From NCBI RefSeq assembly GCF_011045215.1, contig NZ_CP049201.1: a stretch of 64,000 bases of DNA. One strand, given 5' to 3'. The stretch comes from Escherichia coli. Its GTDB lineage: Bacteria; Pseudomonadota; Gammaproteobacteria; Enterobacterales; Enterobacteriaceae. The notes below the pieces were generated by a model. It was not told the DNA's origin, did not search any database, and saw nothing but the letters and a program-made list of their open reading frames with translations. A program made the translations under genes and the position numbers. Below are positions 1,794 to 3,510 of this stretch, one piece after another (position 1 is the first letter of the stretch; each line of letters opens with the position of its first letter).

Positions 1794-3510
1794 AGGCTAT
1801 CCTTCGCGTCGGGAGTAAAGGTTACGGCTGGGTCGTGACGATGCCGCCAGCTGTCAAAAATCAGGTAGACAATCACTACGGCGGCAATGAAATAACTGAT
1901 CATCGCTAACCAGCGCGTACCGTAGCCGCCGAATTCAGCCAGCCCGGCATAGACGCCAATCATCGCGAACAGGATGCCAATTGACGCGATCTTGACGTTT
2001 TTCCACGGTTTCATGTCCACCGCAAACGCATCTTTGAAGGTGAACGGCGTGGCGCGCGGTTTGATAAAACCGATCACCAGCATCACGACCACGTTGATGC
2101 AGAACGTACAGGCCAGCACATAGAGGAAATGGAAGTCGAACTTCACCAGATAGTTGATGGTGATGTAGCTGATTATGCCAATCCCCATCGCCACTTTTGC
2201 CGCCAGCGCCGGGATGCGCGGGAAGAAAAAGCCCATAATATAATGATGATGGTAACCAGCGGCACGTTGTAAATGCCGTTGAGCTGTTTCATCCAGCTAT
2301 ACAGCCCCTGCGGCGCGTTGGCGATCCACGGAGCTACCAGCACCGAAACGATAGCGATAAAGAAACCAAATTTGCGCCCGACGGTGACCAGCTGCTGCGG
2401 CTCGGCATTCTGGTTAATGATGCGACGGTAAATACCCATACTGAATAACGTACTGGCGCTATTCAGAAAGCCGTTGAAGGTACTGATCACCGCACCAAAT
2501 AACACCGCGCCGAAGAAACCCACCAGTGGCACTGGCAGAACGTTATTGACCAGTGTCGGGTAGGCCATGTCGGCTTTCGGTAGATCCTGATACAGATGAA
2601 ACGCAATCAACCCTGGCAGCACCAGTACCAGCGGGTCGAGCATTTTCAGCACCGCCGTTAACAGCGCCCCCTTTTGCCCTTCCGCCAGGCTTTTTGACGC
2701 CAGCGTGCGTTGCACGATGCCCTGATTTGTACACCAGTAAAAGGTGTTCACCAGAATTAAACCGGTAAATGCCGCGCCAATCGGCAAGGGATCGGTCGGG
2801 CCACCGACTGAGTTTAATTTCTCGGCGTGGACGGTGGTAATTTGCTCAATGCCCTGCATAAAGCTGCCCTTGCCCATCGCGATCAGGCCAAATACCGGCA
2901 CCATCAACCCGCCGATAACCAGCCCAATACCGTTGATGGAGTCCGCCACTGCCATTGCGCGCAGTCCGCCGATCACCGCATACAAAATTCCCGCCAGACC
3001 AAGCAAAATTACCAATAGCCAGATAGCCGCACCGTGAGAAATCTGTAGCGATTCCCCGACGTGAAACAGGCTGTTGAGCGCCAACGCGCCGGAGTAGAGA
3101 ACAATCGGCAGAAAGCAGACGCCGGTGGCAATGAGGAAGCAGAAGTCGATGATAATACGCGTCGTTTTATCATAACGTTCCTCCAGAAAATCGGGGATGG
3201 TGGCAATGCCGCGCTTCAGATAGCGCGGTAAAAAGATTAGCGCGAGGAAGATCAGCGTCACCGCTGAAGTCACTTCCCAGCCCATCACCGACATGCCGCT
3301 TTTGTAGGCCTGCCCGGAAAGACCAACCAGTTGTTCCGTGGAAAGATTCGTTAACATTAACGAAGCGGCAATAACCGGCGCTTTTAGTGAACGTCCGGCA
3401 AGAAAATAGCCTTGTTGCGATCCGGTATCTGTTTTGCGAACCTTCCACCAGGTGATGATCGCCACCAGCAGCGTAAAACCGACAAAACTCAAGATTTGTA
3501 ACGAATTCAT
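1790..3510 (-). pseudogene. yidK: Sodium:solute symporter family transporter split by a frameshift
   Basis: Two overlapping minus-strand ORFs (2173..3510 and 1790..2236) together span ~573 codons of one transporter; frame changes inside accatcatcattatattatgggc near 2237-2246, consistent with a 2-nt TA insertion. Confidence 0.6.

Follow-up and report, generated by a model that had tools for sequence, protein, structure and literature searches.

The yidK gene in a 64,000-nucleotide stretch of Escherichia coli DNA, referred to below as the window, very probably carries a recent, strain-private duplication of 5 bp that shifts the reading frame after codon 423 and makes the gene an ordinary pseudogene. 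The features of the locus are as follows (coordinates refer to the window).

300..1793, minus strand: yidJ, an intact sulfatase-family gene encoding a protein of 497 aa (product identical to GenBank QIF14499.1)
1790..3510, minus strand: yidK, sodium:solute symporter family, frameshifted and very probably a pseudogene (1721 nt vs 1716 nt in intact alleles)
2173..3510, minus strand: N-terminal yidK ORF of 445 codons, consisting of 423 native codons and 22 out-of-frame residues (ILWAFSSRASRRWRQKWRWGLA)
1790..2236, minus strand: C-terminal remainder of yidK with the 148 native codons 424-571, which the start codon no longer reaches in frame
2235..2244, minus strand: the lesion, ATTAT duplicated in tandem (ATTAT-ATTAT as read on the coding strand, ATAATATAAT as read on the plus strand), defined by pairwise alignments
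3677..4570, plus strand: yidL, an intact AraC-family regulator gene, divergent from yidK

Flanked by yidJ and yidL, yidK occupies the same position as in annotated E. coli chromosomes, and this gene order confirmed that the interrupted gene adjoins the sulfatase gene yidJ, as had been proposed in an earlier description based on the letters of the window (the sequence-only reading). The same description had a single symporter gene lying in two frames, and its ORF coordinates proved to be exact: the 445-codon and 148-codon ORFs are in different frames and overlap at 2173..2236. The minus-strand sequence that it quoted for the junction (ACC ATC ATC ATT ATA TTA TGG GC) is likewise correct. Translation from the native start codon ends at a premature TAA codon at 2175..2173. 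Once one ATTAT copy is removed, the ORF again has 571 codons, and its translation agrees at every residue (100% identity) with the YidK protein common in E. coli (WP_001087117.1; K-12 yidK), a putative symporter of the yidL / yidK-yidJ locus. The two ORFs therefore represent one sodium:solute symporter gene, the same as E. coli yidK and with the same synteny, which is intact in the reference protein and interrupted in the window copy. The exact sequence of the 297-aa YidL product encoded next to it is widespread.

Pairwise alignment located the whole length difference between the window and intact yidK at one place, where intact alleles read ACC ATC ATC ATT ATG GGC and the window reads ACC ATC ATC ATTAT ATTAT GGGC. 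In intact alleles ATTAT occurs once, its ATT being codon 423 and its final AT the beginning of codon 424 (ATG); duplication of this unit (ATTAT to ATTATATTAT) adds 5 bp and results in a net frame offset of +2, with the shift after codon 423 of 571. The 1,901-nt yidK region of the window aligns to only 1,896 nt in intact alleles, and the duplication is absent from all 11 fetched loci with an intact yidK gene (L001, L005-L014). Relative to intact orthologues, the frame is disrupted by one identifiable lesion, as is characteristic of a frameshift pseudogene. The sequence-only reading had attributed the break to a 2-bp event in which an ancestral sequence with an AT repeat, ...ATT ATT ATG GGC, gained a TA dinucleotide. 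Its net offset of +2 was upheld, and the local sequence is AT-rich, but the physical event comprises 5 bp rather than 2 bp: the window is longer by 5 nt, not by 2, and ATT ATT ATG occurs in no intact allele, all of those examined being one codon shorter (ATC ATC ATT ATG GGC). A TA gain is refuted by the alignments to intact yidK alleles, and we consider its probability to be close to zero. The 5-bp duplication likely arose by replication slippage or as a short de novo duplication.

After repair, yidK differs from its nearest allele at 7 nucleotide positions, all of them synonymous, so that the ATTAT duplication is the only defect of the gene and hence recent. Chance is not at issue for the split of yidK, since the result is derived from a comparison with orthologues and not from a statistical pattern. 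We regard yidK here as an ordinary, recent, strain-private frameshift pseudogene. It resembles the ordinary frameshift pseudogene bglB ('frameshifted') of strain 33F4, likewise a dispensable E. coli gene that carries a single small indel and is otherwise intact; what sets the yidK allele apart is its occurrence in a single genome and a single sequencing run.

The distribution of the allele was determined with a 54-nt junction probe, which was compared with a set of 5,426 complete E. coli genomes that does not include the source genome, and which matched at least 3,516 of these. The duplication was detected in none of the at least 3,516 matched genomes, the best match being 49/54, which corresponds to a 5-nt gap. 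An exact 36-nt junction pattern yielded no matches in the GTDB species-representative genomes and none in the JGI metagenomes. yidK itself was present in 5,115 of the 5,426 complete genomes (94%), and of 60 genomes taken at even intervals along the ranking, 59 had a yidK of exactly 1716 nt, the 60th being cut by the start of the record. The exact YidL allele returned 10 loci, all about 99% identical and all with intact yidK. No close relative (sister isolate) was obtained via the exact YidJ, GlvA-like and YidL alleles, the YidL allele occurring too widely to mark a lineage. When the 445-aa ORF with its 22-residue tail was looked up as an exact protein, one independent record was retrieved, a 47.8-kb contig (contig 39) in the Logan assembly of SRR11014969; this contig is 100% identical to window positions 1..6510. 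In the collections searched, the duplication allele is private to the source genome and this one sequencing run.

As a general observation, the window is approximately 1% diverged from the closest of the 5,426 RefSeq complete E. coli genomes (99.1% identity over 1..20000 and 98.7% over 39000..45000). Other truncated YidK fragments are found in public data, among them one of 165 aa, labelled 'putative sodium:solute symporter' and present on 89 contigs, and one of 421 aa on a contig of 5.4 Mb (P0017, P0018); these suggest possible independent disruptions of yidK in other lineages.

The sequence-only reading had left two possibilities side by side, a real mutation and an assembly error. This question is now largely settled in favour of a real mutation, given the identical Logan allele and the clean surrounding window, and we hold with high confidence that the ATTAT duplication is present in the organism. 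If the duplication were an assembly or sequencing artefact, the true genome would have a single ATTAT and an intact yidK. Such an origin would agree with the uniqueness of the allele to the source genome in every collection searched, with the absence of the source genome from the RefSeq complete set compared and with the lack of any decay in the rest of yidK, as an artefact would also appear; in addition, SRR11014969 may be the very run behind the deposited genome, so that a systematic read-level artefact is possible. However, a second assembler (Logan), starting from the raw SRR11014969 reads, gave the same sequence, with 100% identity over 6,510 bp. Moreover, when the window was aligned to E. 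coli 33F4 over about 60 kb, only the yidK duplication among the indels broke the frame of a conserved CDS, the others being an in-frame 3-bp deletion, compensating gaps in a divergent effector gene and intergenic single-base differences; the window assembly is therefore not error-prone. These 60 kb also showed no error of the homopolymer type, and to our knowledge, no systematic mode of sequencing error is known that yields a clean and perfect 5-bp tandem duplication outside homopolymers. Since the independent assembly is identical and the conserved genes of the 60 kb are otherwise devoid of frame-breaking indels, an assembly error is unlikely as the cause of the yidK frameshift, and an artefact of any kind is very improbable.

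The GenBank accessions of the source genome are in line with a lesion that has already been noticed. YidJ is listed as QIF14499.1 and the glvA-like protein as QIF14501.1, and for the TnaB protein of the window an exact look-up returned QIF14522.1, all three from an E. coli chromosome of 5,409,430 bp. Because a single accession is left between yidJ and the glvA-like gene for two genes, yidK and yidL, yidK is probably already annotated there as a pseudogene without a protein record.

At the protein level, the Pfam SSF profile (PF00474) scored 171 bits with intact YidK and 168.2 bits with the N-terminal ORF of the window (cut-off 22.8), and the N-terminal ORF covers 395 of the 406 profile positions. 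A phmmer comparison of YidK with solved structures returned 2XQ2 (vSGLT; E = 1.4e-53) and 5NV9 (E = 1.4e-20). Homology to vSGLT, the Na+/galactose symporter of Vibrio parahaemolyticus (PDB 3DH4, 2XQ2), and to human SGLT1/2 is clear over residues 6-480 (E = 1e-53), with YidK being a distant paralogue of vSGLT. The residue that we take to be the sugar-binding Gln on TM10 of vSGLT aligns with a Lys in YidK. The gene thus matches the profile of the sodium:solute symporter family (PF00474; TC 2.A.21) and is homologous to its solved members (vSGLT, SGLT1/2, SiaT), while its transmembrane helices are not encoded in one continuous frame, which is broken after codon 423. Judged by sequence, yidK of the window is a family member by descent that is predicted not to encode a complete member.

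According to hydropathy analysis, the break is located inside a hydrophobic segment (about residues 410-436), at its C-terminal end. In the alignment with vSGLT it coincides with the C-terminal end of the helix ...GILAVFLLGLFWKK, with Met424/Gly425 of YidK aligned to the ...FLLGLFW... end; this helix presumably represents core TM10 of the LeuT fold in the published numbering. Four more hydrophobic segments are encoded downstream, out of frame (about residues 431-450, 456-486, 504-527 and 530-554; hydropathy). With the TM10-aligned helix deprived of its end and these four further segments missing, we infer that the YidK transporter is inactive, although the N-terminal fragment, with nearly the whole SSF core, may have residual or split activity.

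Three ways in which the locus might still be functional were considered: a split transporter, a -1 slip on a U5 run, and reversion by repeat loss, which would act as a slow on/off switch. A split transporter would be compatible with the SSF positions that are kept in the N-terminal ORF and with the output of the Logan gene caller, which predicted a 132-aa gene that starts at the ATG of codon 440 and has its first 16 nt in common with the upstream ORF. No Shine-Dalgarno-like motif, however, precedes any candidate restart codon of the C-terminal part, and this option was judged unlikely. The U5 run (GCU UUU UCU in the mutant frame; window 2226..2230, minus strand) lies three codons past the duplication, and a simulated -1 slip on it produced a single, near-native ORF of 573 codons in which MG is replaced by ILWA. 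Against slippage at this site, inspection showed no heptamer of the canonical X XXY YYZ type that would serve the required -1 shift, only the U5 run and CAA AAG being present, nor was a stimulatory element identified; furthermore, the frameshift is conserved in no other genome searched, and nothing indicates selection for it. Programmed ribosomal frameshifting was judged unlikely (0 of at least 3,516 E. coli genomes, 0 in GTDB representatives and 0 in JGI; no slippery heptamer). As for reversion, tandem duplications can be lost by slippage, but known contingency loci have far more repeats than two copies of a 5-mer. Phase variation based on simple sequence repeats is not supported either: every other genome has one ATTAT and the window has two, no further copy number having been seen. 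Genes with a programmed frameshift (dnaX, prfB) and repeat-based phase-variable genes share with yidK the overlapping frames and a short repeat at the junction; in contrast to these systems, the yidK shift is conserved in no orthologue and is accompanied by neither a slippery heptamer nor a long repeat tract. We consider it highly improbable that the locus is still functional in any of these ways, and equally so that the duplication is leaky or reversible through a -1 slip or loss of one ATTAT. If it were, the strain would possess a low-level or switchable yidK-yidJ pathway.

With yidK as an ordinary pseudogene, consequences may extend to yidJ. The two genes overlap by 4 bp (ATGA; junction CCTATGAAACGC), so that the yidJ start codon runs into the native stop codon of yidK; the premature yidK stop is 380 nt upstream of this start. 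We infer that translational coupling between yidK and yidJ is lost, given this overlap and the fact that ribosomes would now halt 380 nt upstream. The resulting stretch of about 380 nt of untranslated mRNA may lower the expression of yidJ via polarity. After the premature stop, the sequence has only a mild C>G stretch, with a C/G ratio of 1.77 over 78 nt, and this mildly C-rich region is suggestive at best of Rho-dependent polarity on yidJ. The ATGA gene overlap makes it reasonable to suppose, as the sequence-only reading did, that yidJ would be without its cognate transporter. If the lesion is real, the strain is probably unable to import the substrate of the yidK-yidJ pair, and yidJ is maybe poorly expressed.

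A search of the literature on yidK function yielded only an indirect link to sugar/galactose: for a yidK deletion mutant, Fuhrer et al. 2017 (PMC5293155) report a galactose growth phenotype, and their metabolome data connect the gene with sugar metabolism. The gene is present in 90.8% of panX strains (bioRxiv 10.1101/2022.09.01.506172) and is listed among the variable 'extended-core' genes (PMC12595684). The yidK case would represent ordinary decay of a dispensable, non-essential gene that is present in 90-94% of strains, with little import beyond the strain itself, and the duplication allele offers a convenient private marker of the lineage.

Several other features of the window were recorded in the course of the comparisons. 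Next to yidL, the glvA-like 6-phospho-alpha-glucosidase gene (4567..5886, minus strand) is intact and encodes 439 vs 440 aa; the deletion lies near 4832, where one TCA is lost from the run TCATCATCA, and the 439-aa allele is known only from the source genome (QIF14501.1, as above). A second pseudogene in the window is likely a pentapeptide-repeat gene (39435..40622, plus strand) located beside an espY4-like effector gene. It contains a stop codon at 40029..40031, corresponding to S199* (TCA to TGA) vs the 395-aa protein of E. coli 33F4. Compared with 33F4, the window is without the bglGFBH-yieL-yieK block and the lpf-O113 fimbrial operon, with the intervals of difference at 41221..44016 and at junctions near 45616/45701 and 48780/48987. 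An ORF of 835 aa in this region (41092..43599, minus strand) is annotated as a type III effector protein in matching genomes, and this organisation also occurs, with an identity of about 98.7%, in strains of the O157:H7-like type and in some from humans and birds. By collinearity with the 33F4 annotation, the end of the window (62783..64000) corresponds to the mnmG-mioC interval, in which E. coli oriC lies.
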